The position numbers were made by a program, and so were the translations under genes. Below are positions 40,301-58,336 of a DNA stretch of 64,000 nt, piece by piece (position 1 is the first letter of the stretch; each line of letters starts with the position of its first letter). The stretch spans positions 1-64,000 of IMG/VR virus record IMGVR_UViG_3300016665_000824, one strand, 5' to 3'. The stretch comes from a virus. The notes below the pieces were generated by a model. It was not told the origin of the DNA. It made no database searches and saw only the letters and a program-made list of their open reading frames with translations.

Positions 40301-43300
40301 TCGTCTGCACGGAGAATCCCTGCATCTTGAAGGGCGTTAGCCGTTTCAAGCAACTCGCCCAACTTCGCCTTAAATAGCGCAGGATCTCCCGCAGACTTGT
40401 TTAAAGCGTCAAGGGCTGCATTATATTTTGAAGTTGCCTGCTCGATCGCATTACCAATACGAGGAAGATCAATAGCCTGAATTTGCAGGTTTACCGACTT
40501 GTAGGATTCTTGAAGTTTTCTAAGGGCTTCAAGTTCTCGATCTCTTTCTGCGTCTAAACCTTCTACAGCTTGAACCTGATTAATGATTGCCTCGATATTG
40601 TTGTTTCTTTCGGCGATCTCCTTCTTCTTATTCTCGATCTGAATATCAAAACGCGCAGCACCATCTTTGTCGCTTAGCGCTTCCGCCTTGGACTTTTCCT
40701 GCTCTAATTTAATTAAATCCTCTTGGAGTTTCTTCTGAGCAGACAGTCCTATTCCTAGATCAACCCGCCGAGAAGCTGACTGATTTAAGACGTTTTTATT
40801 ATCTTGCAATCTTATTTGGACGGCTTTCTCTTCAAGATTTCCTGCGCGATCGCCTAGACCTAACTTGTCGGAAGCGCCAAACGTTACCGTTCTTAGCCCC
40901 TCTCTTGCCGCGTCACCTGTAAGAGCAAAACCTTCTGTAACGCGAGTACCAATATTGTCTCTCTCTTTTTTAACCTTCTCCCTCAACGCGTCTTCGGAGT
41001 TGGTTGGTTTGCTTTGTAATCCCCTCAACTCTTTGAGTTTTGCGAGCTGTTGATCATACAGCTTTAAAGTGGGGTCATCTTGGAGGATGCTCTTGTCTTG
41101 GATTGAGGCAACATATTTTTCGCGTTCTGAGGTTAGGTTTGCTAGCTCAGAAGCGGCATCCTTTCCTTGCGATTTGTTTAGGATCGCAACCCTTGCGTCA
41201 CTATCTTTGAGCGCATCGTTGAGTTTGTCTACATTGGCTGTAGCTGCTTTTGTTTCCTGATCGACGTAGCCAACCAAGGTTGTTATTGCGGCGAAAGCTG
41301 CGCTTAACAATAATGTAGGACCAATTTCTGCGGCGAGGGCGGCGAAGGATTTGCTGATACCTTTGACATTCTCGGAAATAAACGAGGTAGCGCCTACAGC
41401 ACCCTTTTTGAGGTTTGAATAAAGTCCACCGACACTAACGTTCGCGTTTTGAGTGAAATCAGCAAAGCTAGACTTAGCTCGCGAGCCAAAATCTTTGACA
41501 CCAGAAAGAGCATCTTGGAAACCTGTCTTTAACCCAGCACCTAAATTTTTGAGGCTTAAATCGGGGAGAGAAATAGACTTGACTTGATTGACAAACTTAT
41601 CTATAGCGATACGAGAATTAGCCAAAGAAGCGGGAATATTTAGCTCTCTAAAGAACTTATCGAGTCCCAGTCTCGCGTTTGCAAGAGAGGTAGGGACGTT
41701 GATCTGGGAAAATGCTTTTTCAACCCCGTTGCGGAGGTTTACCAGCGAGGCAGGAATGTTGATATTTGCAAAGGCGTTCCGAATGCTAGCTTTAGTATTC
41801 TCAATTTGCGCGGGGAGATTTGCAAAGATACCAGTTTTTTGACTCGAATCCTGACTGAACCTTCCCTTAATGTCAGATATAAAACTACCAATAGAGTCGC
41901 CCAAGGACTTCAAAGAAGTTTTTGTCTTTGTGGCGATCGCTCCAATATCTTCTGCGAACTGTTTTGTGAACGGGACGGGAATTGGATTGGCAATAATCTG
42001 ACTTCGGAGCGACTTGATTCTGTCGGTAGTCTCCTGATAACTTTTAAGAGCCGCCGCACGAGCTTCGGGGGTTAACGACAGATCTGTAGAGTCTTTTTGG
42101 CTCACGATCGCCTGCTGTTTTAGTCCAGAGACCTCTCGTTTAGCGGCGACAACCTGAGTAGGATTTAGAGTCGTTGACTGAACTGGCTTGCCCCCAAGTA
42201 TTTCTCGAACACTATCGTTTAGCTTCTTGATGCGCCCAAAGGTTTCGCCAATACTGGCTCCAGCACCGCTAATTCCCGTGTTAATTGTCTTAAATACATT
42301 GGAGATTGTGCCACCAAACAGCTTGGTAACAGCGATCGCGATTAGCAATCCGCCAACTACTTTTTGAAAAGGATTGGAGTTCTCGCCAAAAGTAAAGAAC
42401 GGCAATATCGTGTCTGCAACCACCTTAATTACTGGTGCTAATACCGACCCTACCGTATCCGCAAACTTACGAATAGCTGCGGTTACATCCTGAATGATTT
42501 TTTGTAGACCTTTGTTCTTCAGGATTAACTGATCGAAGAAGACAAAACCAACAAATGTTCCAGCACCCAACAAGGCTGTTGATACGGCAAAAGACCTTGC
42601 CGCAGCTCCTGCCGCTTTTAATGAATTAGAGAAGATGCTGTTTACTTTCTCGGTATTTGTAGCGACATCGGCAAACTTGCCCAAGCTCTTGGCTGCGTCC
42701 GCAATCAACGGGCTAAACGAGCCAAATAGTTGGGACTTACCAACAATGCCTGAGAAAGCTGTTAAGGCGATCGGCGCTGCCTTCGTAAATCCTTGCAGTG
42801 CGGTTCCTAGCGCAGGAAATGCTTGAGTAAGTCCAATCAGTTTTACCCCAAAGCCACCTAGTGTTGGCAAAGCGGCAGTTATAACTCCCGCGAATGGCGA
42901 GAACGCACCGAGAACTTTGCCCAACTCTTTTTGGACTAAGCCAGCAGCACCAGGGATCTTGTTTAGATTCTCCGCCAACAACAGGAATCCAGCAGACCCT
43001 CGACCGACAACCGAACTTAAATTAGCAAAAGTGTTGACAACCCCGTTAGTACGCTTGTCAAGCAGGAAGAGAACTTCTCCCAAACCTGGTACAAGATTAA
43101 ACATCAACGAGAAGCCTTTGTTTAATGCCCCGATCGCGCCCGAAAGAACTTTTGCGCCGACGGAGATGCCGATCCAAATCCCTCCAAGAGGACCTACAAC
43201 ACCTGCAATTTGTTCAAACACATTAATAGCTGGCTGAACAACAGCAAGAGTAAGGCTCATCGCATCGGAAAAAGCCTTTACTGCGCCAGCGAGAGACTTG

Positions 43301-45780
43301 AATAGGTATTCTGGAACCTGCCCAAAGATCTGGAAGAATGGCCCCGCGAGACTTTTTAGGGTCGCAATCACGTTCTTGAATACGTCAAACAGTATTCCTG
43401 CGAGACTCCCTACTTGAGCAGCGATCGCGTCTTTATTCTTTGAGAAATACTGGTAAAACCCGTCAAGTTCCGCTACTAAAGGTGCGAGGAATTTCTCCCC
43501 AGCGAGTCTGCCGATCTCATCAACTAGCTCTTGAATATTGCTAACAATCCCACCCACGGACTGAGCAGCTAGCTTGTTTCCAGACTTAAATGCTTCTAAT
43601 CGACCTAAAAGCTCTTTGACGAAGGTTCCTTGAGACTTCCACTTAGCCACCATCTCATTGTTGAGGTTAAGCGATTTGGCAAGAGCTGAGTTTTGGTCAA
43701 TAGTTCCCGAAGTTATACTAACAACCTCTTGACGGGCTTGATATAAAGGTATGCCAAGCGTTCCGAGTGCGGCGGCGAACGAGGTTGTAATATTAGCAGC
43801 GTCATTCAAGGACGCGCCAATGTTGCTTGCCTGCCCAGCAACGATCTGAAAAACCCCGACAAGATCTTTACTGGTTACGCCGACCAGCTCTAACGAGTCT
43901 TTACGAATTTTATCGATCGCCCCTTCAACCGCAGGGCCAACCGCCTTGATCGCTTGAGTTGGATCTGATACGCGATCGCCATTAACTACGATTCTATTGG
44001 TTGCCGCTAAGCTCGCCTGAGTAGAGAGTAGTTGCTCTTGGAGCCTGATGTTTTGCCCAATCAACAGATCGAAAGGGCCGTTTTGTACAAATCCTTGGAG
44101 TGCCTGCAATCCCAATCCCAAGAAAGCAAGTCTCTGAGATACTTCAAAGATCGCGTTGGTTGCCTTGCCAGCACCTTCGCTAATTAGATTGAATACTTCT
44201 AGTGGTTCCGTCGCCCCCGCCACTGGAGCAACCACTGCGGCGGCAATATCTACAGGTTCTTGCAGCTTCGGGGCTATCTCTTGAGTCTTTTGAAACCCCT
44301 TAACGATAACATCATCAACACTATCGATGACAGTACCGACTTCGGCAAGGATTGTTGATCTCAGTCCATCAACAAAATTCTTACCTGCGATCGCGCCAGT
44401 ATCTTTTAAAAGCGAACTAAATGTTCCGCCAAAAAACTCGTCAATCTTGGTTGCAAGTTTTTGCAGTGAGCCATCCCCGCTTCCGATAGAATCAATCGCC
44501 GCGCCCAACCCTCCGTCAATAGCATCGACAGCTTTTAGGGCTAAATTCCTGAGAGGCGCAAGGATGCTAGTATCTTCTACGCTAAACAAGCTATTGAGAG
44601 CCTGTCCAACGCCTCCCTTTTGAGTCTCTATTAAAGGGCGGAGGATGGCAAAAGCGGATCTTAAATCCTCTGGAATTGCTTTTTCTAGTCCATTAAATAA
44701 CTGTCCAGACAACGCATTTCCAAAATCTTGCAACTCATTAGAGGCAACAATCGACCCCAAATTTGCCACCCCGATCTTGTTGGCAATCAGTTTTGCTAGT
44801 GGTGGTAGTGGCAACTTATCTACAAGCTGAGGGATTCGCCCCGCTAGGCGGTTGATCAGCTCAGATACAGAGCCGCCTAACTGTTCGTCAAGAATTTTAA
44901 ATTGATCGGTCGCCTCAGATCTGCTGCCGACGATTGCCCTGCCGACCGATCCTCCTAAAGCGCTAGATAAGCGCCCTACAACTCTTTGTCCGTCCTCAAC
45001 GTTTGGCGCGATTGCGTTAACGGCAAAAGCTTTAGCAGCACCCGATACCGACCCACCAGCCAACTGCTTCGACACTTCCGACAGCAATCCAGTTTTTGCC
45101 GCAGTCCGAAATGAGTTGGCGACAATTGAGGTTAAATCCGCCCCGAAAGCTTGGTTAACAATACCTTTTAAAGCGTCGGGGAGTCCTCCCCCAACAACGC
45201 CCGAAATGAGTGAGTCGGCGATCGCGTTATCTAGCGTTCCAGTAAAAGCCTCAACTCCCACTCCAAGCTTGCGCTGAATTTCTTGATTTAGCTTTGAAGC
45301 CCTAACATTTGCTTCTAACGCTTTACCGAAACTGTTTGCAGAATCGCTAAGTATCTGCGTAATTCTCTTGCCGTTATCCGAAAATATTGCAGACTGAGCT
45401 TGCTCTGCCGACTGCTTAGATAAGAATCCTCCTCCGACATCTTTTCCTGCAGAGGTAATCCCCTTGATTACCTTTGAGAGCGGAGCTAGTTTTGAAACTG
45501 CACTGTCGGCGACATTCGAGATCTGTTCTAAAAATATTTTGCCCGACTGCGTATCTAGTACATCTCGAACCGACTGAATTGCGTCTCTCAGCCCTCCAAA
45601 CGTGCCAATCGCGGTTGCCCCTACCGTGCTGATCGTTCCGCCAAGGGCTTGTACAGATCCCTTTGTTACGTCCGCAACAACACCAACACTTTTTAGACCA
45701 GCAGCTATCTCCGAAACTTGTTTGCTTGCTTGATCTTTCGCCTGTATTAAGATCTCAACAATATTGGTTTGCGGAGCCAT
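37345..45780 (-). CDS. tape measure protein (2811 aa)
   Basis: giant ORF with Gly/Ala-rich hydrophobic N-terminal half and ~1000-aa coiled-coil (Q/E/K/A-rich) half, upstream of baseplate/fibre genes. Confidence 0.75.
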   Translation of the reverse strand: MAPQTNIVEILIQAKDQASKQVSEIAAGLKSVGVVADVTKGSVQALGGTISTVGATAIGTFGGLRDAIQSVRDVLDTQSGKIFLEQISNVADSAVSKLAPLSKVIKGITSAGKDVGGGFLSKQSAEQAQSAIFSDNGKRITQILSDSANSFGKALEANVRASKLNQEIQRKLGVGVEAFTGTLDNAIADSLISGVVGGGLPDALKGIVNQAFGADLTSIVANSFRTAAKTGLLSEVSKQLAGGSVSGAAKAFAVNAIAPNVEDGQRVVGRLSSALGGSVGRAIVGSRSEATDQFKILDEQLGGSVSELINRLAGRIPQLVDKLPLPPLAKLIANKIGVANLGSIVASNELQDFGNALSGQLFNGLEKAIPEDLRSAFAILRPLIETQKGGVGQALNSLFSVEDTSILAPLRNLALKAVDAIDGGLGAAIDSIGSGDGSLQKLATKIDEFFGGTFSSLLKDTGAIAGKNFVDGLRSTILAEVGTVIDSVDDVIVKGFQKTQEIAPKLQEPVDIAAAVVAPVAGATEPLEVFNLISEGAGKATNAIFEVSQRLAFLGLGLQALQGFVQNGPFDLLIGQNIRLQEQLLSTQASLAATNRIVVNGDRVSDPTQAIKAVGPAVEGAIDKIRKDSLELVGVTSKDLVGVFQIVAGQASNIGASLNDAANITTSFAAALGTLGIPLYQARQEVVSITSGTIDQNSALAKSLNLNNEMVAKWKSQGTFVKELLGRLEAFKSGNKLAAQSVGGIVSNIQELVDEIGRLAGEKFLAPLVAELDGFYQYFSKNKDAIAAQVGSLAGILFDVFKNVIATLKSLAGPFFQIFGQVPEYLFKSLAGAVKAFSDAMSLTLAVVQPAINVFEQIAGVVGPLGGIWIGISVGAKVLSGAIGALNKGFSLMFNLVPGLGEVLFLLDKRTNGVVNTFANLSSVVGRGSAGFLLLAENLNKIPGAAGLVQKELGKVLGAFSPFAGVITAALPTLGGFGVKLIGLTQAFPALGTALQGFTKAAPIALTAFSGIVGKSQLFGSFSPLIADAAKSLGKFADVATNTEKVNSIFSNSLKAAGAAARSFAVSTALLGAGTFVGFVFFDQLILKNKGLQKIIQDVTAAIRKFADTVGSVLAPVIKVVADTILPFFTFGENSNPFQKVVGGLLIAIAVTKLFGGTISNVFKTINTGISGAGASIGETFGRIKKLNDSVREILGGKPVQSTTLNPTQVVAAKREVSGLKQQAIVSQKDSTDLSLTPEARAAALKSYQETTDRIKSLRSQIIANPIPVPFTKQFAEDIGAIATKTKTSLKSLGDSIGSFISDIKGRFSQDSSQKTGIFANLPAQIENTKASIRNAFANINIPASLVNLRNGVEKAFSQINVPTSLANARLGLDKFFRELNIPASLANSRIAIDKFVNQVKSISLPDLSLKNLGAGLKTGFQDALSGVKDFGSRAKSSFADFTQNANVSVGGLYSNLKKGAVGATSFISENVKGISKSFAALAAEIGPTLLLSAAFAAITTLVGYVDQETKAATANVDKLNDALKDSDARVAILNKSQGKDAASELANLTSEREKYVASIQDKSILQDDPTLKLYDQQLAKLKELRGLQSKPTNSEDALREKVKKERDNIGTRVTEGFALTGDAAREGLRTVTFGASDKLGLGDRAGNLEEKAVQIRLQDNKNVLNQSASRRVDLGIGLSAQKKLQEDLIKLEQEKSKAEALSDKDGAARFDIQIENKKKEIAERNNNIEAIINQVQAVEGLDAERDRELEALRKLQESYKSVNLQIQAIDLPRIGNAIEQATSKYNAALDALNKSAGDPALFKAKLGELLETANALQDAGILRADEVAGAFQKVATNVSADRDLQIKAQEAITAAYKKEADRRIAIYDAQLSQIQALLATGRISESESIALSGQLEEKKIQAQSEADQKALRARQQILETNANEQKQQIKRDRELAEAQLAAATGDPSKIRQVREAQAPVLQGKIDDTSQQIKDAEARKKALQESISTGVAGDNAAEDVKKVTDELAVLQSRLNSLQSQKGTLDSTLKLSEDTQGQLEGITKQIEDGEKALSSLKAGNAETLQRFNTVKDAPFFNSSEYTAQIKAEQDAIAKKESELRTLQTKRDQLSSIAKPDAERQNLAKNSIADANKKELDLVKATAAQKARLEEDADNKRKDAEAKIAKARSERFVKGLDAQIKETLAAEKVGETQRLAQIAQLRKSGIKLESEIKLQETAERKRSITLELQLEQQKQKAIADLEKKGVGVSKETKNANLIKVAELSKQLAEAELAAIEGLVSAVRDRLVLESQKYAVTIEQQNLKLERQKLLFTALEKGLENQSRLSESANKLAQSTVALRESEFAALNKIYDRQQAAIRAAGGQGNFADLELEEKKLILAEKLAVLKLNSLKQQQKFEAESLEREIQKRDLLLERKKVENEIAIAKKKVDIASQDAAIKAAELEVKLRPQSEEAKLKLAQAKLGQEKNFLELGGLQQEKGFIADEAKVNEIVNKNDRQALANKQQGETNTAIGDVIGATRDPALQERLQREQLARLTQNTGTAALTTTDVSNAVAAASQPVNVRGASFKNPTSALLGQVEQGGVFTAAPEPKPDNAPFATSFEELAKKYPDKGMAGSFEELNKKYPAQANSFEELNAKYGGKPTEEAKPEQAIASSFDKLTQQIDEGFSKVLVAPDLKVKDLTAGLEAEFNRVSKQISENPVTLKIDDKAFEEAQKKLDKPIALLDEGQLQRAEALAQAFGSLGGKDLVPQQQGNPTGAALGTSGNITVNAPIAINTQSNISSAAGVGNDVQKAVNDTLNNVLRRVAGVTSGVR
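37840..37995 (-). repeat. three tandem ~45-nt repeats encoding SFEEL-x-KKYP inside the tape measure gene
   Basis: GCTCCTCAAA recurs three times on + strand; protein repeats SFEELAKKYP / SFEELNKKYP / SFEELNAKYG. Confidence 0.6.
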
Positions 45781-45823: not shown

Positions 45824-46171
45824 TTACTTTTGCTTTAGCTTTTCTGGCTCATATCGCGACACCAAGGCGATAAGCAGATCTTGAGACGGCTTTATTTCTG
45901 AGTCAGCCCATTCTTTGAAATACTTGTGATATCTAGAACAGCTAGCCTCGGCTTTAGCGGTTTGCTCTAGGGCTAGCTGCTTCGTGGGGTCGCTATCAGG
46001 GAGGGTCTTTAACCCCTCCTCTTTTCCTAGCAGACTATACGAAGTCGAGCAATACCTGTAATCTTCGGCGATCGCTGTCGCTGCCGACTTGGACTGAAAA
46101 GACCTTACAGCGCCAACTGAAAGCAACGCTAGCACGACTACCGCCCCTAATGTGATTGGATTAAGCTTCAT
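45824..46171 (-). CDS. hypothetical protein with N-terminal signal peptide/membrane anchor (115 aa)
   Basis: internal ATG 46171 of track ORF 45824-46288; N-terminus MKLNPITLGAVVVLALLSVGAV. Confidence 0.5.
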   Translation of the reverse strand: MKLNPITLGAVVVLALLSVGAVRSFQSKSAATAIAEDYRYCSTSYSLLGKEEGLKTLPDSDPTKQLALEQTAKAEASCSRYHKYFKEWADSEIKPSQDLLIALVSRYEPEKLKQK

Positions 46172-46220
46172 TGATTTTTGTGATTTCTTCACGAAGATTA
46201 TAGCGCGATCGCCTCGCAAT

Positions 46221-48428
46221 TTATCCCTTACCGTTACTGGGTTTTGAGGTTGGCTTATAGACATCATAGAGAGAGCCAATCTTCCCATTCTTCTTAGAGG
46301 CGTATAAAATCATAGGATCTTGACCCTCCATAGGGGCGAAGCCAGCCTTTTCGTAAATACTCTTACGCTTACTGCCAGCCCCATCTTTGTCATAAGCCCC
46401 AGCCGTAAGAATAGAGTTGTCGGGCATAGCCTCAATATGCTTGGCAAACGAAGCCTTTGTCATGCGAATAATTTGTTTTGCTCCAGAAGCCCCAAGGTTG
46501 GCGGACTCCTCCTTGTTATTGGATTCGTTTATGGCGAAAGAAACCTCGTAGACACTTCCTCCAGAAGCTTCTTTTTTGTACACAGTCGTAAAGGTGTACA
46601 AGGCTGGTCCAACAGAAGCTACAGTATAAACCCCACCATTCTTTCTATCCCTGTAAGTGAAGCTGTTCGATTCTTTGTCTACGTCAATAAGATCCCGACC
46701 CTTAATAGACTGAGTTTTTCTTGCCAAGGCGAGCTTGGTCATTCCGATAAGACCTTTTGCTTTGTCTTTAAGGGCTGGGCTTAAATCAGATCTATCCAAA
46801 GCCCGATCCGCCACTTTCCCCAAGGCTAAACTCTGCTTGTAGGTCATAATCAGTGCAACATCTGAAATCTTGTAATCTTTTGTCGCTTGAATATTGCCAA
46901 TACCGACGACTCCAGCTACCACTGAACCTACGCTACCTGCGACGATCGCTGCCTTGCGAGCGCCTTTGTTAGAAAGTAGTCCGATAGCCTTGTCTACTGG
47001 TGTCTCCTTTTTTTGTAGGGGCGGCTGAGGTATAGAGAATTCCGTTTTTGGTTGTTGTGACTCGCTTGGATTACCCCCTTTTGTTGACTTGCCTCGGTTT
47101 GCAGCGATCGCCGCCGCACCACCAACTAAGGCAGCAGCACCTAAACCAGTACCAACATTTCGGGCTAAATTATTCTCGCTTTTTTTCTCGCCGATCTTTT
47201 GACAGGCGTTTCCACGCTGGACATAGCCTTCCTTGCATTTGAGCGTTCTACCCTTGTCGTAGCGCAAAGATACCGACATACGCCCCTCAAGATAAGACGA
47301 ATCATTCTGTAGATCGGCATCAGTCCGCCTTGTAGTTGCACTTTGATAGATGTTGCTAAATAGGTAAAGAACTTCGATATCCTCGTCATCCTCAACCGAG
47401 TCTCCCCTCTTCTCATTTATCTGGGATATCTTCTCGTTTGTTTTAGCCTCTACGTTTTCTCTAAAGTCCTTGAGTCCACCCCTCTTTGTTGCGAGGGTGA
47501 GAGCAGTGCCAAGAAGAATGGTGTCTCGCTCAGCTCTTCTTAGAACCTTCTGAAAAGGAGATAAGGTAGATTCATTCTTACCACCCGAAATCGACTTGGA
47601 CACATATTCTCCCGCAATGCGTTGAATTTCAGGATCTTTAGACCACTCGGAAGCTACGGATGAGCCATATTTCAAGGCTGCGCTACGAGCTTTTGGATTG
47701 GTCAGCACCTCTTTTGCGATAACCATAGAGGCTTTTTTCTTTGCTTCAACTAAGTTTGTTTCGTTACTAAATTCAGGAGCGACAAAAGTTCCGACAGCGC
47801 TGGCTACTTCTGGCTTTTCCGCAAGAATACTCAAAATTGCGGTAGCTTTATCTCTGTAAGCAGGATTGTTTAAATCCTTGATGCGCCTTTTAATCAATAC
47901 TTGAGATAAATTGTCTCCCTCACTTTTGATTTCACCTTTCTTCTCTTTTGACAAAAGGTTTGCCACTACAGAGACAGTCTTGTTCACCGCCACCGAAGCC
48001 GCCTTTTTCGTTGCGCCCAATATAATCTGATTCTTTTTCTGAGAGATCGCAGCCCCAGTTACCGCAACAACGGTACTGGCTCCAGCCGCCAAATACCTCT
48101 TCGCCAGAGGAAGTCCTTTCTCCCCTTTTTTGGAGGCAGTAGAACTCGAAAGAAGGGCAACAGGGGCGGGATCTACGGCTCTGTTTTCTTGCGGAGATCT
48201 TCTCGATGCGATCGCCGCCACACCGCCGACTAAAGCCGCAGCCCCTAGCCCTGCGCTAATATTTCGAGCTAAATCACCCCCAGCCTTCTTCTCGCCAATC
48301 TTCTGGCAAGCAGCCCCGCGCTGTACATAACCTTGCTTACACTTAATCTTCTTCCCCGCATCTTGACGTAGAGCGACAGACACCTGCCCCTCAAGATAAG
48401 CTAAGTCACTGGCTAAATCTCTCGTCAT
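46221..48428 (-). CDS. large modular protein with duplicated Cys-motif + Gly/Ala-zipper module (735 aa); function unknown
   Basis: two copies of YLEG..SV.LR.D.G...KCK.GYVQRG.ACQKIGEKK ... GLGAAALVGG.AAIA. Confidence 0.8.
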   Translation of the reverse strand: MTRDLASDLAYLEGQVSVALRQDAGKKIKCKQGYVQRGAACQKIGEKKAGGDLARNISAGLGAAALVGGVAAIASRRSPQENRAVDPAPVALLSSSTASKKGEKGLPLAKRYLAAGASTVVAVTGAAISQKKNQIILGATKKAASVAVNKTVSVVANLLSKEKKGEIKSEGDNLSQVLIKRRIKDLNNPAYRDKATAILSILAEKPEVASAVGTFVAPEFSNETNLVEAKKKASMVIAKEVLTNPKARSAALKYGSSVASEWSKDPEIQRIAGEYVSKSISGGKNESTLSPFQKVLRRAERDTILLGTALTLATKRGGLKDFRENVEAKTNEKISQINEKRGDSVEDDEDIEVLYLFSNIYQSATTRRTDADLQNDSSYLEGRMSVSLRYDKGRTLKCKEGYVQRGNACQKIGEKKSENNLARNVGTGLGAAALVGGAAAIAANRGKSTKGGNPSESQQPKTEFSIPQPPLQKKETPVDKAIGLLSNKGARKAAIVAGSVGSVVAGVVGIGNIQATKDYKISDVALIMTYKQSLALGKVADRALDRSDLSPALKDKAKGLIGMTKLALARKTQSIKGRDLIDVDKESNSFTYRDRKNGGVYTVASVGPALYTFTTVYKKEASGGSVYEVSFAINESNNKEESANLGASGAKQIIRMTKASFAKHIEAMPDNSILTAGAYDKDGAGSKRKSIYEKAGFAPMEGQDPMILYASKKNGKIGSLYDVYKPTSKPSNGKG
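47080..47330 (-). repeat. intragenic duplicated module, copy B (approximate bounds)
   Basis: DNA and protein similarity to 48190-48428. Confidence 0.5.
48190..48428 (-). repeat. intragenic duplicated module, copy A (approximate bounds)
   Basis: see 47080-47330. Confidence 0.5.
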
Positions 48429-48763
48429 TTCTTGCTCCGCTTTTTAATCATCTTGCTAATAGCTTCAGCTCCATTAGCCACTTTAGACTCAACCTTGCCC
48501 GTAGCTCGACCCGTGTTAAAGATTGCCTTACCAGTATTAAAATCCTCTTTCAATCCTGTTTTACCTTTATCGGCAAGTTTGGCGATCGCCACAGCAGTCA
48601 GTCCCGCGATCACGCCACGACCAACTGCGCCAGCAACACTCTTAATCGCTGTTTTAAGTTTGCCTTTACCACAAGTAGCGCCTTGAGGGATGCAGTAGGT
48701 TTTACCATCTTCTCCTTGGCAGGGTTTGCCGCGATCGCACGTTGTGTCTAGTCTAATCTTCAT
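48425..48763 (-). CDS. small Cys-knot + Gly-zipper membrane-helix protein (112 aa)
   Basis: TTCDRGKPCQGEDGKTYCIPQGATCG then AIKSVAGAVGRGVIAGLTAVAIA; ATGA coupling to downstream gene. Confidence 0.7.
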   Translation of the reverse strand: MKIRLDTTCDRGKPCQGEDGKTYCIPQGATCGKGKLKTAIKSVAGAVGRGVIAGLTAVAIAKLADKGKTGLKEDFNTGKAIFNTGRATGKVESKVANGAEAISKMIKKRSKK

Positions 48764-50468
48764 ACTTATTTTTCACCGCTTTTTCCACCGCAAGTCTGGC
48801 TGCAATACCAATCGCGATCTTAACTATGGGATGAGAACCTTCTGCGTAAGAAGGAGAGGCTTTTTGTAACGCTGCAAATGAAGCTTTCGTGCCTACATAT
48901 TGCGTTGCCGCGTCAGAAAACATCAATAGCGCAGTTTTTTCTGTCTGACCTAACGAGGAGTCGGACAACGTTCTCTCTGTCGCATCACGAGCAACTTTAC
49001 CTCCAAAGGCTCCAACCAAACTAGAACCAATCTCATATCCAAGCATCTTGAGTTTGTCTTTTTCTTGCCTCCCAATCGATTTTAAGGTGACAAAATCGCC
49101 CACTTGCTGGACAAAGTTCTTTTTCGCTTGCGGAGTTTGAATCATGGCTTGGAGGCTTCTGCCTGCGCTTGAATTGCGGAGTTTTCCAATAGAGCGGGTT
49201 AAGCGATCTCCTAGTCCGCCCCTTCCTTTTACTGTGGATAGAATAGCCTCCCCGACCTGCATCCCGTCCCTAGCCTTCTGCCTTAAGTCGTGTTGCTTCC
49301 CCTTAGGGGCATTAGCGATTAGGGCTAGCGTAGTCGCCGAGGCTGCTGCTACCCCTATTGTTGCCAAGGTTCTTGAGGAAATAAAAGGTTTTCTCTTTTC
49401 TGACCCGCAGGTTGCGTTTTTTGGGATACAGTAAGTCTGACCGTCCTCGCCCTTGCACGGCTTTCCGCGATCGCAGGTAGAATCTATTCTATTTTGAATA
49501 GATCTTGTTTTTTTGTAGATGTATCCGCTAGTCCTCCCCGTCTTAGATCTCAAAAAAGAATCTGTTTCTGTACTGATTTTGCGTGCAAACCCCTGATAAT
49601 CCTGAAAACGATCGGTCACAGTTCTGGGTTGCTTGTCCTGCCATTTTTCTGTTAATTGCCTGTTTAGATTGGCGTGAACGTCAGCCAACTCTTTAGCTAG
49701 TGAGCTACTAGGAGAAAATGCCCCCTCTCTTTTAGCCTGTAATACAGAGGTGGTTTCCGCTCCAGTCGCACGAATTTCTTTGATGTTACTAAAAAACGCT
49801 CCTACTTTTAAGTCGGCGGGACTAAAGGCTGACGTATCTCCAACCCCAGCAATATCTGGGTGATTGTGAGTCATCAGTACTGTGTTTTTTGCGGCTTTTT
49901 GATTATACGCATCGGTTATTCCAAGAGAGACCGAGCCTATCTGCCCTTTTCTGATCAGTGAAGGCTTGCCATCCACGTCAAAAGCAAAAAGAGTCTCGAA
50001 ATCATTATGCTGGATCTTTCTTTCTGCCGCGTAAACACTAATTGCAAGTTCTTTGGGGAGGTGGCTATATGCAGGAGCATCTCTTGCGGGAATGCCATTC
50101 TTGGCTACGTCTTCTCGTTCTTTCGCAAACTCCTTATAGGTTTCAACATCATCAAGCTTCTCTCTTATAACCTTATTGGCAATCATGGCTCCCACCCCCA
50201 GCGCTAAAAACTTAGCCGCCGCCTGAGGATCTTTAGAAGCTAATGCGGCTCCTGCCGCTAGTACAGTCAGTTTTGCAAGAGTTCCAGTTCCATCGCCCTT
50301 ACTAGCTGTGGATAGGGAACCAGTTCTAGATATCGGATGACAGGCGGAGCCTCTTTGGACATAACCTTGCCGACAATTGATTTTTTTGTACTCATCCCGC
50401 CTCTCCACATATCGCGATCGCGACAGTAGATACCCCATTTCGTACTCGTTCTTGTTATCTAGTCTCAC
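48753..50468 (-). CDS. large modular protein (571 aa) with N-terminal Cys/Gly-zipper module, a second 4-Cys motif, and an HNHP...SPAD motif
   Basis: GTG start in GTGA overlap with upstream stop; shares modules with 735-aa and 112-aa proteins. Confidence 0.75.
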   Translation of the reverse strand: MRLDNKNEYEMGYLLSRSRYVERRDEYKKINCRQGYVQRGSACHPISRTGSLSTASKGDGTGTLAKLTVLAAGAALASKDPQAAAKFLALGVGAMIANKVIREKLDDVETYKEFAKEREDVAKNGIPARDAPAYSHLPKELAISVYAAERKIQHNDFETLFAFDVDGKPSLIRKGQIGSVSLGITDAYNQKAAKNTVLMTHNHPDIAGVGDTSAFSPADLKVGAFFSNIKEIRATGAETTSVLQAKREGAFSPSSSLAKELADVHANLNRQLTEKWQDKQPRTVTDRFQDYQGFARKISTETDSFLRSKTGRTSGYIYKKTRSIQNRIDSTCDRGKPCKGEDGQTYCIPKNATCGSEKRKPFISSRTLATIGVAAASATTLALIANAPKGKQHDLRQKARDGMQVGEAILSTVKGRGGLGDRLTRSIGKLRNSSAGRSLQAMIQTPQAKKNFVQQVGDFVTLKSIGRQEKDKLKMLGYEIGSSLVGAFGGKVARDATERTLSDSSLGQTEKTALLMFSDAATQYVGTKASFAALQKASPSYAEGSHPIVKIAIGIAARLAVEKAVKNKYED

Positions 50469-53083
50469 TGGCTTTGCTTCCTCGCTTTACGGCGTTGAGT
50501 TAATGTTGCATTGAGTTTTTTGGCGATCGCGTCAGCAGCATTTACCGACAGGTAATCCACTGCGCTGCCGTTAGTTCCTGAGAAGCTATCGGGGTTTTTG
50601 CCCTTGAATGGAGTTCGACTCCAGAGATCGCCGTCCGACCACAGATCGGTCTTTGGAGTTTTTAGCAGATCTGTATCTACTTTTTTCTTATCTACCTTCT
50701 CTCCCCCAAAACCCAGCTCAGGAGTTCCCAAAGTAACAAGGTGAATTTGTTTAGCAATATAAGTCCCAGCAACATTTCCTTGCGAACCTGTTTTTTGCAT
50801 TGACTCCAAGATGTCCAAAGCCCTTTTTGCTGTTTCTCCACCTTGCTTTAGCCCAATAACAGAAATAGCTGGGTATTCAGTTGAGCTTCCCTCGTATGAG
50901 CTGTTTCCGATAGCGTAAAGTTCCGCAGCCAACTTTACAGCTTCAGGGTCTCGTCCCGCTTTGAGGGTCTTACTCATCACGGCTTCGTAGCTTCTTGCCA
51001 TAGTGTCAATAACACCCATAACCCTGCCCCTAGACTGAGGCGGGAGGGTTCGATCAAAAGAAACCACGTCGCTTTGATCGTAGAAGTCTTTCTCTGCTTG
51101 AGACTGAAGCTTTGATCCGTTACTTTTAATTGATTTGCCCAGAACATCGCTAGGAGTTTCTCCATCTCCTATTGCGATAATGACGCTGGGATTTATTGGG
51201 GTAGGCAAAGTCGTTCGTCCACTTGCTACAATCTCTTGAGCCTCAAGAGCAGACTTCGCTATATTGTTGTTGTATTTAACCCTCGCAGCCACAGCAGCAG
51301 TCACCGTTACTTGACCAAGTACGGCTACAGTATTAATCGCTGCTGCTGTGGGATTGTCTTGATATTTATCCTTGATCGCAGAAACCAGATTCCACGTCTT
51401 TCCTAGCGTTGGGTTTACCGCAGTGATCGCCGCCGCTATTTCTTTTGCCCCCTTGTCGCTAGACTTGCTTCCCGCAACAGAATTAGAGAAAAATCCAAAC
51501 GTCTCGCGGATTTTATCTCTGACCGTGCTATCGGTTAAGTAGTCCTCAATCTCATGCCCCTTGACCGAGCTGACAAACTGCGAAAACCTCTTAGGCAGGA
51601 TTGAGAAAGGATCGTTTTTGGAGGTAATAGTGCGGTTGTTAATGTTCGCCCAGTTCTTGTCGTCTTGAGTTGTGCCACCCGTCAAACCGAAGGATGCACC
51701 GCCAAGTCTGGCGATATTGAGGCGCTTCAGAACTTCTCCACCATCAAGCCCCCTAGCAGGCTTGATCCGACTCAAAATTTCGGCAGCTTCATCAACAACG
51801 TTGCCCCCAGAACCGTGACTAACTACGTTCAAAGGCTTGTCACGATACTTAGAGCCATAAGCATACAATTTAGAAGCCAGATCCACCGCAGCTTCGTTTC
51901 TGCCACCGACAATATTGCTTAGATATTTGCCAAAACTTTCTTTAGCTACATACCCCAGATACAAGGGATTGTAGTTCCCGTTTTTATCCTTTGGGAGAAT
52001 ATCGGTTGGAGGAACATTAAACTCCGAATTGTTGAAGGGGATGACCTGCTGGGTCTTGTTAAACCACTGTTCCCGTTTTGAAGTGTCAAGCGGAGTTTTT
52101 AAATATTCAGCGAGCTTATCACCAGAAGAGCCAAGGTTGGAAAATCCTCCTACAGCAAAAGTTAGTTGAGGTTTGGAGGTTGGCTCGACAGGAGTAGTTT
52201 GTGCTCTTTGGTACGCCATTAGCGCCGATTCAGGCAAGCCTTCTTTGTAGCGATCGCGAGCGGTCATCATTACCGATGAGGGAATGCCCAGCAGTACGCT
52301 TGCCGCTAATATGCCTGCCGCAGGGCGATTGTCTCCAAAAAACTTGCTAATCTTTTCGATATCTTTCCATGCGCCAGCAACGGGTTGGGGTAGCAAACTC
52401 TTAAGAGCTTTCTTGCTAGACTCTGCGCGATTCAAGCCTTCACGAACAATCTTCTGGCGATCGGGATTGGCTTTTTGCAGGCGAATTGATTCTCGCAATT
52501 GAGCCTGACTCATATACGAGTAGCGATACACGCCTCGTTTGCGAGCTTCTTCCTTTAATTCCCGAATATTCTTGTTATCAAGATCGTCCTCAACTGGGGC
52601 AACGCCAACAAATTTCGCTTTTTGAACTTGGTTTACCGCATCATTCAGATCGGAAATCTCTTGTCTATTTAAAGCTTCAGGAACGTCAATACGGCAGGTG
52701 TCCGTCTTTGCAATACAAGCGCCTTTGCAGGATAGTCCAACCTTACAGTTCTTGGGCTTAGAAATTTTATCGGTACGTTGACCGATATTGTTTGCATAAG
52801 CAAGTAAGTACTGATCTGCGTCAGTATCTACTGCATCAGTGCGACCATCCTGTACCTGCTTATACTCAATGCGATCTCCTAATTCCAGCCGAATCAGCTT
52901 TTGATCCTTGTCATCATCACGAAACAGACAAGTGATAAGCCCGTCATTACCGATATTGATATTAAGGATCTGATCGATACTCCCGTAGGCGCGAGAAATA
53001 ATGCGAGTTAATAGCCTCGCAATCGTTCTTCTTGCGGCGAGAGGATCTGTGGTTTGAATTGGTGGTGGTGCGATCGCGTACAT
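50465..53083 (-). CDS. large modular protein (872 aa) with N-terminal Cys motif; function unknown
   Basis: N-terminus ...NCKVGLSCKGACIAKTDTCRID; Ala/Val-rich hydrophobic segment; VSHGSGG motif mid-protein. Confidence 0.75.
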   Translation of the reverse strand: MYAIAPPPIQTTDPLAARRTIARLLTRIISRAYGSIDQILNINIGNDGLITCLFRDDDKDQKLIRLELGDRIEYKQVQDGRTDAVDTDADQYLLAYANNIGQRTDKISKPKNCKVGLSCKGACIAKTDTCRIDVPEALNRQEISDLNDAVNQVQKAKFVGVAPVEDDLDNKNIRELKEEARKRGVYRYSYMSQAQLRESIRLQKANPDRQKIVREGLNRAESSKKALKSLLPQPVAGAWKDIEKISKFFGDNRPAAGILAASVLLGIPSSVMMTARDRYKEGLPESALMAYQRAQTTPVEPTSKPQLTFAVGGFSNLGSSGDKLAEYLKTPLDTSKREQWFNKTQQVIPFNNSEFNVPPTDILPKDKNGNYNPLYLGYVAKESFGKYLSNIVGGRNEAAVDLASKLYAYGSKYRDKPLNVVSHGSGGNVVDEAAEILSRIKPARGLDGGEVLKRLNIARLGGASFGLTGGTTQDDKNWANINNRTITSKNDPFSILPKRFSQFVSSVKGHEIEDYLTDSTVRDKIRETFGFFSNSVAGSKSSDKGAKEIAAAITAVNPTLGKTWNLVSAIKDKYQDNPTAAAINTVAVLGQVTVTAAVAARVKYNNNIAKSALEAQEIVASGRTTLPTPINPSVIIAIGDGETPSDVLGKSIKSNGSKLQSQAEKDFYDQSDVVSFDRTLPPQSRGRVMGVIDTMARSYEAVMSKTLKAGRDPEAVKLAAELYAIGNSSYEGSSTEYPAISVIGLKQGGETAKRALDILESMQKTGSQGNVAGTYIAKQIHLVTLGTPELGFGGEKVDKKKVDTDLLKTPKTDLWSDGDLWSRTPFKGKNPDSFSGTNGSAVDYLSVNAADAIAKKLNATLTQRRKARKQSQ

Positions 53084-53085
53084 GA

Positions 53086-54492
53086 CTATTTTTTAGCTTG
53101 CTTCTGGTTTTCTTCTTCCGCCTTGTTTATGGCGTGGGCTGCGAGAGCTAGAGATCCAGCAGTTGCCGCAACGTTCGCTCCGATCGCGCCAGCAACAGAT
53201 GCTCCGCGACCATGACCACGCGATCGTAAAGCTCTGTAAGTGCCGCTACCGATCGGCCCAGCCAGCGCCTGTACCGCCCCCTTTCCAAAAGCTTTGGCAG
53301 TCTCCCCAGCACAATTCTTTTCTTGAGGAATACAGATCTTTCCGCAAGGCTTAGTACCTGAACCGCACTTTGCGTCTTCACGAAGCTGCTCGACGAATGA
53401 GTCGATGCGCTCATCTAAGGATTCGTATCGACGACTTGTTTTATTCCACACTCTATTTGTAGTCATATTCGCTCTTCTAATTCGTTTTGGCATCTCCCTC
53501 CGAGTTGTTTTAACCTCAGATGCTTTTACGTCTACCGTATTATTCTTGTCAACAAAAGTCTGCATAAAACTTCTAGCGAAATTGTCTACGGCGTTAAGAG
53601 TTGATCGGGTGGTAGATCCCGCCTTTTTTGCCGCCTCGTTTAGGTCGATAGTTTTGTCGGCAAGATTCTTCCTCGCGACGCGATCGCGTTCTAGCCTTTC
53701 TTTTGTTTTTCGATACAACTTACCCGCCGCCGCACCTGCGGAACCAGCAGCTCTTGTTAATAGTGGCTTCTGAGGTTCGGCGATCGCACTACCACTACTC
53801 TTGCCCGATTCACTCGCAGCAATAGTTAATCCACCAGTAGATACCTTGGAAGCAGGAGGGTTGTATGGCAGTCGAGTTGGAGGTGGGGGTGTAGGAGTTT
53901 CAGGTTTATTGACGGGGACTAGTGCTCCACCGATTTCTGGCTTGGGCTTGGGTGATGGAAGGCGATCGGGCGGGGCTAGCCTCCTGCTTTCTATCTCGCC
54001 TTGCCGAGCTGCTTCTCGCTCAAGATCTTTCTTAGCCTTATATCGAAAATACTCCTCTTCTGCCGCAGCTTCCTCTGCTCTCCACCGCGCCCTCCGAGTT
54101 TCGCTATCCTTTTCGCCAGCCTTGTTTGCGCCCTTCTCGATAATGGGGCGAAGACCTACGGTGATGGCTTTATTCGCAATTACACCTGCGCCGAGTGATG
54201 CGGCAGTTCCACCGACCTTGATCGCCGCTTTCTTAGCAAACTCACCAACCTTATTGGGAGGTGACTGAGGAAGTATAGAAGCAGGCTCCGTCACAGGGAT
54301 AGGCTTCTGTTCTTCTGGCTTCTTCCTTAGCGCGATCGCTGCTGCCCCCAACCCACCCAAGGCAAGTGCAGCGCCAACACCCGCAGCCCCTTTCTTTGCT
54401 GCACTGGCATTGCGGAAGTATGAATAAGCCTTACGTCCATTTTGCGCTGGGACTTTAACTTCTACCTGTGCGTCCTGTCTTTCAGTACTCAT
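53086..54492 (-). CDS. modular protein (468 aa) with Gly/Ala-zipper helix, Pro-rich linker and C-terminal Cys motif
   Basis: GAAGVGAALALGGLGAAAIA near N-terminus; PSPKPKPE...PETPTPPPPTRLP linker; CGSGTKPCGKICIPQEKNCAG; ATGA coupling. Confidence 0.75.
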   Translation of the reverse strand: MSTERQDAQVEVKVPAQNGRKAYSYFRNASAAKKGAAGVGAALALGGLGAAAIALRKKPEEQKPIPVTEPASILPQSPPNKVGEFAKKAAIKVGGTAASLGAGVIANKAITVGLRPIIEKGANKAGEKDSETRRARWRAEEAAAEEEYFRYKAKKDLEREAARQGEIESRRLAPPDRLPSPKPKPEIGGALVPVNKPETPTPPPPTRLPYNPPASKVSTGGLTIAASESGKSSGSAIAEPQKPLLTRAAGSAGAAAGKLYRKTKERLERDRVARKNLADKTIDLNEAAKKAGSTTRSTLNAVDNFARSFMQTFVDKNNTVDVKASEVKTTRREMPKRIRRANMTTNRVWNKTSRRYESLDERIDSFVEQLREDAKCGSGTKPCGKICIPQEKNCAGETAKAFGKGAVQALAGPIGSGTYRALRSRGHGRGASVAGAIGANVAATAGSLALAAHAINKAEEENQKQAKK

Positions 54493-54875
54493 CTGTTTGG
54501 CATCCTCGTTAAAATAATTTCCCAGCTAAAACTTTTGTTCTCAATAGTCCCCATTACCTCATTACACTTGATCGAACCATCGACAATGTAATACTTGCCC
54601 TTGCCCGTAAGCTGAGCCTCGGTGTATGCCGCAGATATACCGCTCACCTGATAGTCGTCAATACCAACCTTGATATTAGTGCTTTCAAACAAGGCGACAG
54701 TACGAGGGTTAACCCGTAGAATCGTGGGGTGAGGCAATATCTCTAGCCTTGTTTCTCCCGACGTAGTGCGAGTCACTACTGTTAATGGCAGCACATTAGG
54801 CGCACCGATCGCATCTCCTGCTAGGCGATCGCGCAGTGGTTGAAGTTTGGCAATAATCTTTGAGGCTAGTGACAT
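54489..54875 (-). CDS. hypothetical head-tail region protein (128 aa)
   Basis: ORF. Confidence 0.6.
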   Translation of the reverse strand: MSLASKIIAKLQPLRDRLAGDAIGAPNVLPLTVVTRTTSGETRLEILPHPTILRVNPRTVALFESTNIKVGIDDYQVSGISAAYTEAQLTGKGKYYIVDGSIKCNEVMGTIENKSFSWEIILTRMPNR

Positions 54876-54902
54876 ATCGCTATTGTTTGATGCTCACAAG
54901 CA

Positions 54903-54939
54903 AACAGGCGATCGCTTGATGAATTAGCGATCGCCTGTT
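54903..54939 (-). terminator. 13-bp perfect stem hairpin built from two HIP1 sites (intra-operon attenuator candidate)
   Basis: AACAGGCGATCGC ttgatgaatta GCGATCGCCTGTT. Confidence 0.45.
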
Positions 54940-54968
54940 AGATCTCCTTGTACACATGGCACATGAGG

Positions 54969-55388
54969 CTAGAAGGCAATGAATGGTGGCACGGCAGGGA
55001 TACTGTCACCCATAAAACCGCCCGTTAGAACCAATTCCTTAAGCATTAGAAATTGCTGCCCATAGGTGGTTCGAGATAGATACACATCGGAGAATCTGCC
55101 ATTACCGTTTGCGGGGGTGGAGGTTCTCCGATTAGACATAGACTCACCAGTGTCGATCGCCTTAGCATTTGACACAGTGACAGTACCTTCCTCGGTATTG
55201 AGCGCCAAATAGTGAGCAGTCAGCAACATTACCGCCATTTCCGCATTGTCACCCCACTCTTCAATCGAGCAAAACCGCGAATAGAAATTCAGCCAGTTCT
55301 GGATAAAGATCAGCGACTCCCCAACAAAGTCAGAGAATGCTGCCTCGGAAGTGAAAGTATCTGCGGAAACGACGGGGTATGTTGCCAT
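54969..55388 (-). CDS. putative head-tail connector/adaptor-like protein (139 aa)
   Basis: size and position; ...MAVMLLTAHYLAL segment resembles phage head-tail adaptor families (weak). Confidence 0.55.
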   Translation of the reverse strand: MATYPVVSADTFTSEAAFSDFVGESLIFIQNWLNFYSRFCSIEEWGDNAEMAVMLLTAHYLALNTEEGTVTVSNAKAIDTGESMSNRRTSTPANGNGRFSDVYLSRTTYGQQFLMLKELVLTGGFMGDSIPAVPPFIAF

Positions 55389-55392
55389 GTAT

Positions 55393-56019: not shown

Positions 56020-56029
56020 GATTTCTTCT

Positions 56030-56467: not shown

Positions 56468-56478
56468 AATTCAATAGA

Positions 56479-56518
56479 TATAAAAATATCGAGCGCAGGT
56501 ATTCCCACGCTCGATATT
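56479..56518 (-). terminator. intrinsic terminator/attenuator immediately downstream of putative major capsid gene
   Basis: 11-bp perfect stem (AATATCGAGCG / CGCTCGATATT), 12-nt loop, then TTTTTATA on the transcribed strand. Confidence 0.65.
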
Positions 56519-56528
56519 GGCGATCGCC

Positions 56529-57440: not shown

Positions 57441-57450
57441 TGGACTCCTC

Positions 57451-58323: not shown

Positions 58324-58336
58324 TGTTTAGTTGCTC

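Follow-up and report, generated by a model that had tools for sequence, protein, structure and literature searches.

Why would a viral protein of 735 residues carry the same short module twice, and why would its neighbours carry it as well? This question is raised by positions 46,221 to 48,428 of a 64,000-nucleotide stretch of viral DNA (positions 1 to 64,000 of IMG/VR record IMGVR_UViG_3300016665_000824, hereafter the window), in which a minus-strand open reading frame (ORF), 46221-48428, encodes the protein that we call p735; all proteins of the window are named in this way, by p and their length. The module consists of a cysteine-containing hairpin followed by a Gly/Ala-rich helix, and its hairpin belongs to a large family found at the boundaries of protein units that bear very different domains. 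We propose, with a probability of about 0.55, that it serves as the leader or boundary module of cargo units packaged in the virion for delivery to the host.

We thus analyzed first the repeat itself. The initial annotation had placed a ~75-aa module twice in p735, with DNA copies at roughly 48190-48428 and 47080-47330. Both copies were found again, at 48198-48419 and 47094-47315 (repeat families D1 and D3), separated by 1104 nucleotides. In the protein, residues 4-77 and 372-445 align without any gap over 74 residues with ~65% identity and a score of 262, to be compared with 29 +/- 5 for shuffled sequence (z=44), and the alignment still reaches z=29 when the Gly/Ala helix is excluded. The DNA copies are 68% identical overall and 47% identical at third codon positions, with a nonsynonymous divergence (dN) of ~0.22 and a saturated synonymous divergence (dS); the repeat is therefore an old duplication maintained by purifying selection, neither recent nor of low complexity. 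Moreover, both copies keep their two cysteines (C30/C41 and C398/C409), so that their similarity cannot be ascribed to low complexity. Altogether, the protein alignment and the dN/dS comparison describe a genuine repeat and refute a resemblance confined to Gly/Ala residues with no conserved cysteine.

The module is not restricted to p735. The initial annotation had added the starts of the 571-aa and 872-aa proteins; these copies do exist, but the count was too low, since seven copies are present in five consecutive minus-strand genes, p468, p872, p571, p112 and p735, those overlooked being an internal copy in p571, the N-terminus of p112 and a copy near the C-terminus of p468. In p735, unit 1 comprises the module, a transmembrane (TM)-like helix and a helical middle domain, and unit 2 the module, a TM-like helix, a helical region and a GNAT-like domain. 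The first copy contains a helix (DLAYLEG..LRQD), a two-cysteine hairpin KCKQGYVQRGAAC and the Gly/Ala helix GLGAAALVGGVAAIA, and AlphaFold2 predicts with low confidence a helix at residues 5-21 and a beta-hairpin at 34-37/40-43; the hairpin of the second copy is predicted, again with low confidence, at 402-405/408-411. The gene p112 (48425-48763) encodes a minimal unit: a four-cysteine module (C9, C15, C24 and C31; spacing 5, 8, 6), a Gly/Ala TM-like helix at residues 42-65 and a short tail. It is 44% identical to residues 327-417 of p571 (E 2e-20). An internal four-cysteine module with its TM-like helix occupies residues 308-388 of p571 (49305-49547). As had been claimed, p571 also opens with the module in its two-cysteine form (residues 10-82, 50223-50441), which matches both p735 copies by blastp with E ~1e-8. 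The related module of p872, CKVGLSCKGACIAKTDTC, is of the four-cysteine form and is not strictly N-terminal as had been thought, as it occupies residues 89-136 (52676-52819) after a region of ~90 residues. Finally, p468 carries towards its C-terminus a four-cysteine module, residues 352-400 CGSGTKPCGKICIPQEKNC, and a Gly/Ala TM-like helix at residues 431-455 (together 53128-53439). Of the 23 cysteines of these five proteins, 22 fall inside modules; a single one is left for ~2600 non-module residues, compared with ~0.6% cysteine in the other structural proteins.

The anatomy of the module was defined by aligning the copies of the window with those of Aphanizomenon phage vB_AphaS-CL131 (hereafter CL131) and Planktothrix phage PaV-LD. 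A helix with an aromatic residue and a nearly invariant R-x-D at its end is followed by a basic linker and by the cysteine core, C-x5-7-C-G-x2-C-I-x5-C, whose cysteines are numbered C1 to C4 below. A Gly/Ala-rich hydrophobic segment with small-xxx-small spacing comes next in this cyanophage clade only. At least 90% of the aligned modules have kept the R and the D that precede C1. In both p735 copies and at the p571 N-terminus, the core has degenerated to two cysteines: C1 and C3 are kept, C4 is lost and C2 is replaced by Arg (QRG instead of xCG). The helices following the modules of the window display Kyte-Doolittle 19-mer maxima of 1.5-2.0 and 4-14 small-xxx-small pairs per segment, with a Gly + Ala fraction of 0.25-0.51 across the seven. 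Judged from sequence, these are the characteristics of TM helices of the glycine-zipper or GxxxG type, whose insertion into a membrane is only predicted. The Cys hairpin and the Gly/Ala helix are in fact separate entities, the helix having been added in this clade. The initial annotation had spoken of a shared N-terminal module; the Cys hairpin also lies at internal junctions.

What does the module delimit? Homologue searches with p735 and p571 gave four close relatives each, and the two-module architecture of p735 is retained in P0002-P0004, even where the middle domain differs. With a profile of p735 and three relatives, 149 cluster representatives, most of them matched in the C-terminal half, were obtained among 1.84 billion proteins. 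The Cys motif is present in 110 of the 157 proteins of the p735 family set and lies upstream of the GNAT-like domain in most of the 149 cluster representatives of the latter. A large group of proteins of 850-1500 residues (e.g. P0041 and P0056) is built on the p735 plan, with an N-terminal four-cysteine motif, a helix, a domain of ~450 residues, an internal two-cysteine motif, a second helix and a p735-type C-terminal domain. There are also stand-alone homologues of p735 unit 2, of ~350 residues (P0010, P0011, P0013 and P0014), made of the module, the helix and the C-terminal domain. They start (M..DL..DLAYLEG) precisely where both p735 copies start, which indicates that an autonomous unit begins with the module and that p735 is a fusion of two cargo units. 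A search of BFVD with p735 returned uncharacterised phage proteins only, and the AlphaFold2 model of full-length p735 is poor, with a mean predicted local distance difference test (pLDDT) of 39.

The domains carried behind the module are diverse. In p735, residues 576-720 (46269-46703, minus strand) are modelled with a pLDDT of 60-76 and their top Foldseek matches in the PDB are almost all GNAT acetyltransferases, the best one being TacT2 (E=0.027, probability 0.97). This C-terminal domain displays a KR..IYEK.GF motif, and it gave no Foldseek match at E<1e-3, no Pfam match and no PDB sequence match. In p571, residues 130-320 (49509-50081, minus strand) form a JAB/RadC-like domain (THNHP ... 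SFSPAD), which is associated with the same Cys module in CL131 gp044. The THNHP motif is invariant in p571, gp044 and the IMG/VR relatives, and is followed by S-x-x-D in most of them. Aligned by hhalign with Escherichia coli YicR, p571 has its strands and HNHP in register with a probability of only 8.8%, and no match to the JAB-like domain was found in Pfam, NCBIfam or the PDB; profile searches of the PDB with the JAB-like and GNAT-like domains returned nothing significant. Lipase-like alpha/beta-hydrolase domains stand behind the module in CL131 gp047 and gp048 and in p872. The latter bears two such candidate domains, at residues 300-540 and 620-860 (50504-52186, minus strand), with a TM-like helix between them at residues 579-604. 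By jackhmmer they are linked to gp048 domains that pass the Pfam thresholds of DUF676, Lipase_3 and DUF900. Their nucleophile elbows read SHGSGG and GLKQGG, whereas two of the three elbow motifs of gp048 read GHSAGG; p872 itself has no match in Pfam and the canonical nucleophile serine (G-x-S-x-G) is missing from both domains, which may thus be catalytically dead or use a shifted nucleophile. An ADP-ribosyltransferase follows the Cys module in PaV-LD ORF079, where it exceeds the Pfam threshold, and in the IMG/VR locus L061. The alignments for the cargo domains of the window are shallow and the individual enzyme assignments are tentative. The notion of one leader for many different cargoes is itself well supported: the swappable cargo foreseen in the initial annotation is strongly borne out and reaches far outside the window.

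Two other stretches of p872 deserve mention. The region of ~90 residues before its Cys module (residues 1-88, 52820-53083, minus strand) resembles G.F.D....F.F.I....I.Y and may be a separate small domain; similar N-terminal regions are observed in L002 (ORF078/079), L061, L117 and L159. Farther on, residues 167-196 (52496-52585, minus strand), which lie after the Cys module and before the first hydrophobic helix, show a weak Rho_N/SAP-like helix-extended-helix motif (Pfam E 0.17), and a comparable stretch is present in L117 and in the last unit of CL131 gp048.

The hairpin is not limited to this clade. None of the Pfam, NCBIfam and PHROG models covers the Cys module. A strict pattern, C-K-x-G-x2-C-G-x2-C-I-x5-C, back-translated to DNA (TGYAARNNNGGNNNNNNNTGYGGNNNNNNNTGYATHNNNNNNNNNNNNNNNTGY), was recognized in at least 120 stretches of IMG/VR, compared with a single one for a control pattern in which C3 and C4 are one codon farther apart. 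This single match sets the empirical chance level, far below the motif family; in genome contigs the same control gave 10 matches, all out of frame or stop-filled. A hidden Markov model iterated on the fetched IMG/VR loci identified 280 domains in 255 ORFs from 142 loci, and the Cys, Gly, Arg and Asp columns are conserved over 180 unique instances. The Cys hairpin is thus a widespread mini-domain absent from the domain libraries. No match was returned by tblastn among 50,697 records of isolated phages, the queries being p735, two motif contexts and P0041, and a word-indexed protein search with the module alignment recovered one fragment only, the query being too short for a word index.

In 111 of 219 instances the motif lies within 60 residues of the first Met, and the remainder are at internal domain junctions; a hydrophobic helix follows in only 37 of the 219. 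As in the window, cysteine is scarce elsewhere in the motif-bearing proteins (0.22% outside the motif versus 1.27% in the other long ORFs of the same loci). The motif is N-terminal, ahead of kinase-like, HNH and DnaJ domains, in several IMG/VR loci. Three others encode portal fusions. In L061 (6915-9104, minus strand), a portal (residues 47-473) is joined through the motif (438-478) to an Alt-like ADP-ribosyltransferase (470-685); in L065 (876-3581, minus strand), a lambda-family portal is followed by the motif and a ParB-like region; the contig L064 (5150-9295, plus strand) also encodes a portal fused via the motif. The fusion genes of L061 and L064 adjoin the terminase gene. A last group consists of small proteins in which a signal peptide or lipoprotein box directly precedes the four-cysteine motif (L059, 6773-7204, plus strand; L062; L093, 1244-1372, minus strand; L137, 5166-5342, minus strand). 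Some of these secreted-type proteins possess additional Cys pairs (CCKV-C...GCACQG).

This distribution leads to another explanation, namely that the module is chiefly a proteolytic processing signal. Cleavage would take place at or near the R-x-D / hydrophobic-D-F/A-A element just upstream of the hairpin, by the head maturation protease or by the JAB-like peptidase of the block, and would free the cargo with the hairpin at its new N-terminus. The motif indeed sits exactly at the portal/cargo junctions of L061, L064 and L065, where injection would need release, the R and D before C1 are, as noted, kept in at least 90% of the modules, and the N-termini of stand-alone units cluster at the element (MRLD.., MKIRLD.., MIKYRED.., MKKPQC). 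A protein with a JAB-like domain is also conserved in the block, and processing is presumed for the polyvalent proteins of phages (PMC5512222). On the other hand, many proteins have the module at their very N-terminus, where there is nothing to remove, and the motif occurs in small secreted proteins outside any polyprotein context. A protease site would moreover require neither four invariant cysteines nor a hairpin predicted with confidence. Cleavage would have escaped the mass spectrometry of CL131, which was confined to fully tryptic peptides. We thus regard processing as an unlikely main function, but it is compatible with a leader or boundary module of delivered cargo units and does not exclude it.

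The fold of the hairpin and the state of its cysteines were then considered. Among the unique aligned instances, 277 possess all four cysteines (CCCC), 55 are of the xCxC and 20 of the CxCx form. All other patterns correspond to truncated sequences, save one instance with a single substitution (CxCC, L104). The two-cysteine forms hence retain solely C1 and C3 or C2 and C4, exactly as predicted by two independent disulfides, and the motif cysteines are probably paired as C1-C3 and C2-C4. The symmetric pairing C1-C4 / C2-C3 was rejected on account of these same forms. The depletion of cysteine outside the motif, together with its near-invariance inside, also points to paired and protected cysteines, and an oxidative fold is consistent with the presence of the motif after the signal peptides of small secreted proteins. 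The AlphaFold2 model of the p468 module, obtained with a 50-sequence alignment, shows a beta-hairpin (strands 36-39 and 42-45) with a pLDDT of 84-85 in the Cys core, C2 being at the end of strand 1 and C3 within strand 2. The low-confidence model of p735 has the hairpin in the same register in both copies.

A Foldseek search with the module model gave nothing significant, the best match being a conotoxin (E=5). The module profile (alignment A6) did match the LDL-receptor class A modules of LDLR, LRP and relaxin receptors in the PDB (best E 8e-4), with the pattern C-K-x-G-x-F-x-C-G...C-I-P-x2-W-x-C, and 16 of the 50 module segments gave sub-threshold matches to Pfam Ldl_recept_a (PF00057; best E 0.0092); no match to this family was obtained with the whole window proteins at E<=1. 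In the LDL-receptor class A fold, C1 and C3 form a disulfide. Compared with this fold, the module is devoid of the C-terminal lobe, of two final cysteines and of the calcium cage, no conserved acidic cluster (D-x-S-D-E) being found after C4 in alignments A1 and A6; we therefore treat the fold as an analogue only. The N-lobe of the LDL-receptor class A domain is the closest structural analogue of the hairpin, a weak resemblance and not a family membership.

One would also wonder whether the four cysteines could instead bind a metal, forming a zinc knuckle whose Lys/Arg-rich flanks contact the packaged DNA or its end, so that the cargo would travel with the genome. The proteins are made in the cytoplasm, the four cysteines are nearly invariant and their flanks are strongly basic (KRKK-C.., RAKN-C.., C..-RK); in many two-cysteine forms C3 is replaced by His and an extra His is present (CGASHIPKAHEC). 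However, the spacing contains no CxxC knuckle, and the two-cysteine forms, which keep only the pairs (1,3) or (2,4) as expected for two disulfides, would have lost any Cys4 site. At C3, Tyr or Phe instead of His is found in many xCxC forms. The motif is moreover found behind signal peptides and lipoprotein boxes, and its best sequence analogue is the disulfide-bonded lobe of the LDL-receptor class A domain. A zinc knuckle appears to us as improbable as a purely proteolytic signal.

The genomic context bears on the proposed packaging and delivery. The cyanobacterial HIP1 octamer, the palindrome GCGATCGC, occurs 135 times in the window, compared with 1.2 times expected from shuffles; the window is that of a cyanophage or prophage bearing the host oligonucleotide signature throughout. 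Along the minus strand, the head genes (54489-59827, assigned from PHROG and Pfam matches) encode in order a protease-like protein of 496 residues, a 290-aa protein, the major capsid protein (PHROG 264), a 208-aa protein, a DUF4054 head-tail adaptor and p128. Next come the five module genes, the gene of a small membrane protein, that of a 2811-aa tape-measure-like protein (37345-45780) and those of large tail/host-recognition proteins. The match of the 2811-aa protein to the PHROG 305 tape measure is weak (E 3e-4, residues 16-493 only), and its assignment also comes from synteny with CL131 gp049 and PaV-LD ORF088, both annotated as tape measure proteins. It contains no cysteine at all, whereas ~16 would be expected from the cysteine content of the other structural proteins. 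The capsid protein of the window shares 33-34% identity with its counterparts in CL131 and PaV-LD, and in both phages an equivalent block of module genes separates the head-completion genes from the tape-measure-like gene. The Cys motif is carried by gp044, gp045, gp047 and gp048 in CL131, where gp048 (1811 residues) has six motifs, five of them of the four-cysteine form, and by ORF078, 079, 080, 081 and 085 in PaV-LD, as well as by ORF061 and ORF065 farther upstream. A 140-kb metagenomic relative, L179, retains the order 419-875-570-112-671-120-2940 aa.

A further indication, by analogy, comes from the virion of CL131. All the products of ORF044-ORF049 were found by liquid chromatography-tandem mass spectrometry in virions purified on caesium chloride, with 123 peptide-spectrum matches for ORF045 and 175 for ORF048 (PMC6293099, Table S5). 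Module-bearing proteins (ORF044, 045, 047 and 048) are thus virion components in this phage. These experiments considered fully tryptic peptides only and are hence blind to processing (PMC6293099).

The same data could suggest that the five proteins have a structural or assembly function in the tail, as tube proteins, chaperones or tape-measure accessories that stay in the particle and use the module for oligomerisation or for binding the tape measure. Their genes are placed like the tail tube and chaperone genes of siphophages, directly upstream of the tape-measure-like gene, CL131 has no identified tail tube gene, its ORF045 product is very abundant in virions (the 123 peptide-spectrum matches above), and p112 has a weak match to TMP_2. 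However, the cargo domains are enzyme-like and vary between phages, hydrophobic helices are unusual in tube proteins, and the same motif is fused in unrelated phages to portals and to ADP-ribosyltransferase, kinase-like, ParB-like and DnaJ domains. Furthermore, PaV-LD, which has been described as tailless or short-tailed, retains the block. We hold this explanation to be very improbable. As for a chance or low-complexity similarity, suggested by the Gly/Ala richness of the helix part (0.25-0.51 in the seven window helices), it is refuted by z=29 without the helix, by the columns conserved in 180 instances and by at least 120 pattern matches against 1.

Our preferred explanation, a leader or boundary module of packaged and delivered cargo units, could operate as follows. 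Each unit would open with a leader of ~75 residues, in which an amphipathic helix ending with R-x-D precedes a beta-hairpin stapled by cysteines and a Gly/Ala membrane helix of the glycine-zipper type. The block formed by the products of the five module genes and by the giant tape-measure-like protein, which lacks cysteine, would be packaged in the particle and delivered at infection. The hairpin would form a stable, probably disulfide-bonded (C1-C3, C2-C4) knob, by which the N-terminus of every unit is labelled and retained in the particle; units would fuse, split and probably be processed there as well. Once ejected, a unit would be fixed in the host membrane by its Gly/Ala helix, its enzyme-like cargo (GNAT-like, JAB-like or lipase-like) being turned towards the cell. 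Of this scheme, the repeat, its family, its place at unit boundaries, the variety of the cargo and the occurrence of module-bearing CL131 proteins in virions are established; disulfide formation, membrane insertion, ejection and the role as a handle or processing site are inferred. This would be in line with the targeting or anchoring role put forward in the initial annotation, but a boundary or processing site fits as well, because the motif is also found at internal portal/cargo junctions, where the portal itself ensures incorporation into the particle.

Several observations weigh against this mechanism. The packaging of the five proteins of the window is presumed by analogy with CL131, their ejection is hypothetical, and they may sit in the capsid or in the tail. 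The TM helices are deduced from hydropathy and are absent from the AlphaFold2 models, and most motif instances have no hydrophobic helix. The portal fusions need no separate targeting tag, so that the role of the motif may differ there. The module proteins are made in a reducing cytoplasm, and the frequent His at C3 of the xCxC forms, with a second His near C4, hints at metal binding. The complementary loss of Cys pairs probably reflects few independent events and has a modest statistical weight. Finally, the cargo assignments are weak (Foldseek E=0.027 for p735, 8.8% by hhalign for p571, no canonical nucleophile serine in p872).

A broader and more tentative proposal, which we find possible yet less probable than the leader of packaged units taken alone, is that the hairpin is an unrecognised and widespread leader or boundary domain of tailed phages. 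It would be a disulfide-stapled knob resembling the LDL-receptor class A lobe, would define exchangeable, portal-adjacent cassettes of injected cargo, and would serve both as an address or processing mark and as a breakpoint for swapping; in cyanophages related to CL131 and PaV-LD, the added glycine-zipper helix would turn the cargo into membrane-anchored effectors. Phage proteins packed in the particle and injected ahead of or with the DNA are a major and poorly mapped arsenal against host defences, and are hard to spot by sequence; a short searchable tag ahead of the cargo would expose injected effectors in metagenomes. In the fetched loci, the motif already flags more than 250 ORFs with ADP-ribosyltransferase, kinase-like, ParB-like, HNH, DnaJ, GNAT-like, JAB-like and lipase-like domains. 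Experiments on the addressing, processing and release of cargo could also start from this tag. For cyanophages of bloom-forming cyanobacteria, it points to a five-gene block of candidate membrane-anchored effectors, and the near-invariant motif cysteines of otherwise Cys-free proteins suggest a redox-dependent step of infection.

Some additional features surround the block. Between p735 and the tape-measure-like gene, p154 (45824-46288, minus strand) overlaps the end of p735 by 68 nucleotides and displays one strong hydrophobic helix (residues 38-68) without the Cys module; translation probably begins at an internal Met, and a 120-aa gene is its syntenic counterpart in L179. In L179, an IS605 OrfB/TnpB (Cas12f-like) gene (2350-3576, plus strand) is inserted in the head region, in the interval separating the capsid gene from the module block, and a Bro-N/ANT gene follows the tape-measure-like gene. 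The window also encodes a Rha/Ant-like anti-repressor or regulator (62870-63595, minus strand; PHROG 2657/373), and these two regulatory genes hint at a temperate or regulator-rich lifestyle. Both the coding strand and the GC skew switch at ~25-26 kb, with plus-strand genes before this point and minus-strand genes from 25.7 to 59.8 kb.

A parallel can finally be drawn with known systems of virion-associated effectors. The MuF polymorphic toxins are portal-linked injected effectors of phages. Like these and the polyvalent proteins, the module-bearing proteins are multi-domain and probably virion-associated, with unrelated enzyme or enzyme-like domains (ADP-ribosyltransferase, ParB, kinase, peptidase and acetyltransferase-like) that are swapped between relatives; head or portal fusions exist, and delivery with the DNA and processing are presumed. 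L061, L065 and L159 clearly combine at least two disparate domains, as polyvalent proteins do; p735 (helical and GNAT-like), p571 (JAB-like and a C-terminal domain) and p872 (two hydrolase-like domains) are multi-domain too, with weak enzyme assignments. They differ from polyvalent proteins in that the units are spread over five genes, each opened by the Cys hairpin, with a membrane helix in addition in this clade, and scans of the window proteins with family libraries found neither a zincin metallopeptidase nor a MuF domain in the module block. The survey of polyvalent proteins noted their paucity in cyanobacteria (Iyer et al. 2017, PMC5512222). By word search, the terms cysteine, disulfide and transmembrane are absent from that article, and the Cys motif was not found in it (PMC5512222).

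The resemblance to the LDL-receptor class A domain (PF00057) lies in the pattern of its N-lobe, C-x2-G-x-F-x-C-G..-C-I-P-x2-W-x-C, in the beta-hairpin between C2 and C3, and in a C1-C3 pairing that is consistent with the loss of Cys pairs in the module. However, the module has four or two cysteines instead of six (C1-C3, C2-C5, C4-C6) and about half the length, it comes from phages and bacteria, and all its Pfam matches are sub-threshold, so that homology is not established. Another comparison concerns the internal proteins IPI-III and Alt of phage T4, which bear an N-terminal capsid targeting sequence of ~10-20 residues that is removed by the prohead protease. There also, a short N-terminal leader is found on unrelated proteins, packaged and injected in T4 and presumably so here, with an ADP-ribosyltransferase among them, but the T4 leader is a linear peptide without cysteine or membrane helix and has no sequence similarity to the module. 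Alt is cited in the survey of polyvalent proteins (PMC5512222).

The ejection or internal virion proteins gp14-16 of T7 and gp7/20/16 of P22, and the tape measure protein Pb2 of T5, possess membrane segments. Common traits are the position near head-completion genes and a giant internal or tape-measure-like protein, hydrophobic segments suited to insertion into the envelope and, presumably here as well, enzyme domains taken into the cell envelope. On the other hand, these proteins share no Cys leader and do not form a family with swappable cargo, and no sequence or profile match to them was found among the window proteins. Polymorphic toxins have junction motifs, VENN in CdiA and PxxxxDPxGL in Rhs. 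Here again, a short conserved element stands upstream of variable cargo, at points of fusion, recombination or processing, but these toxins belong to other secretion systems, and their motifs lack cysteine and are unrelated in sequence, whereas the module is a folded hairpin at the N-terminus of a unit. What is new in the present case is a folded Cys leader that lies outside the domain libraries and is coupled, in one clade, to a glycine-zipper helix over five genes. By analogy, its function would be closest to that of the polyvalent injected effectors and the T4 internal proteins, and its architecture to that of the junction motifs of polymorphic toxins.

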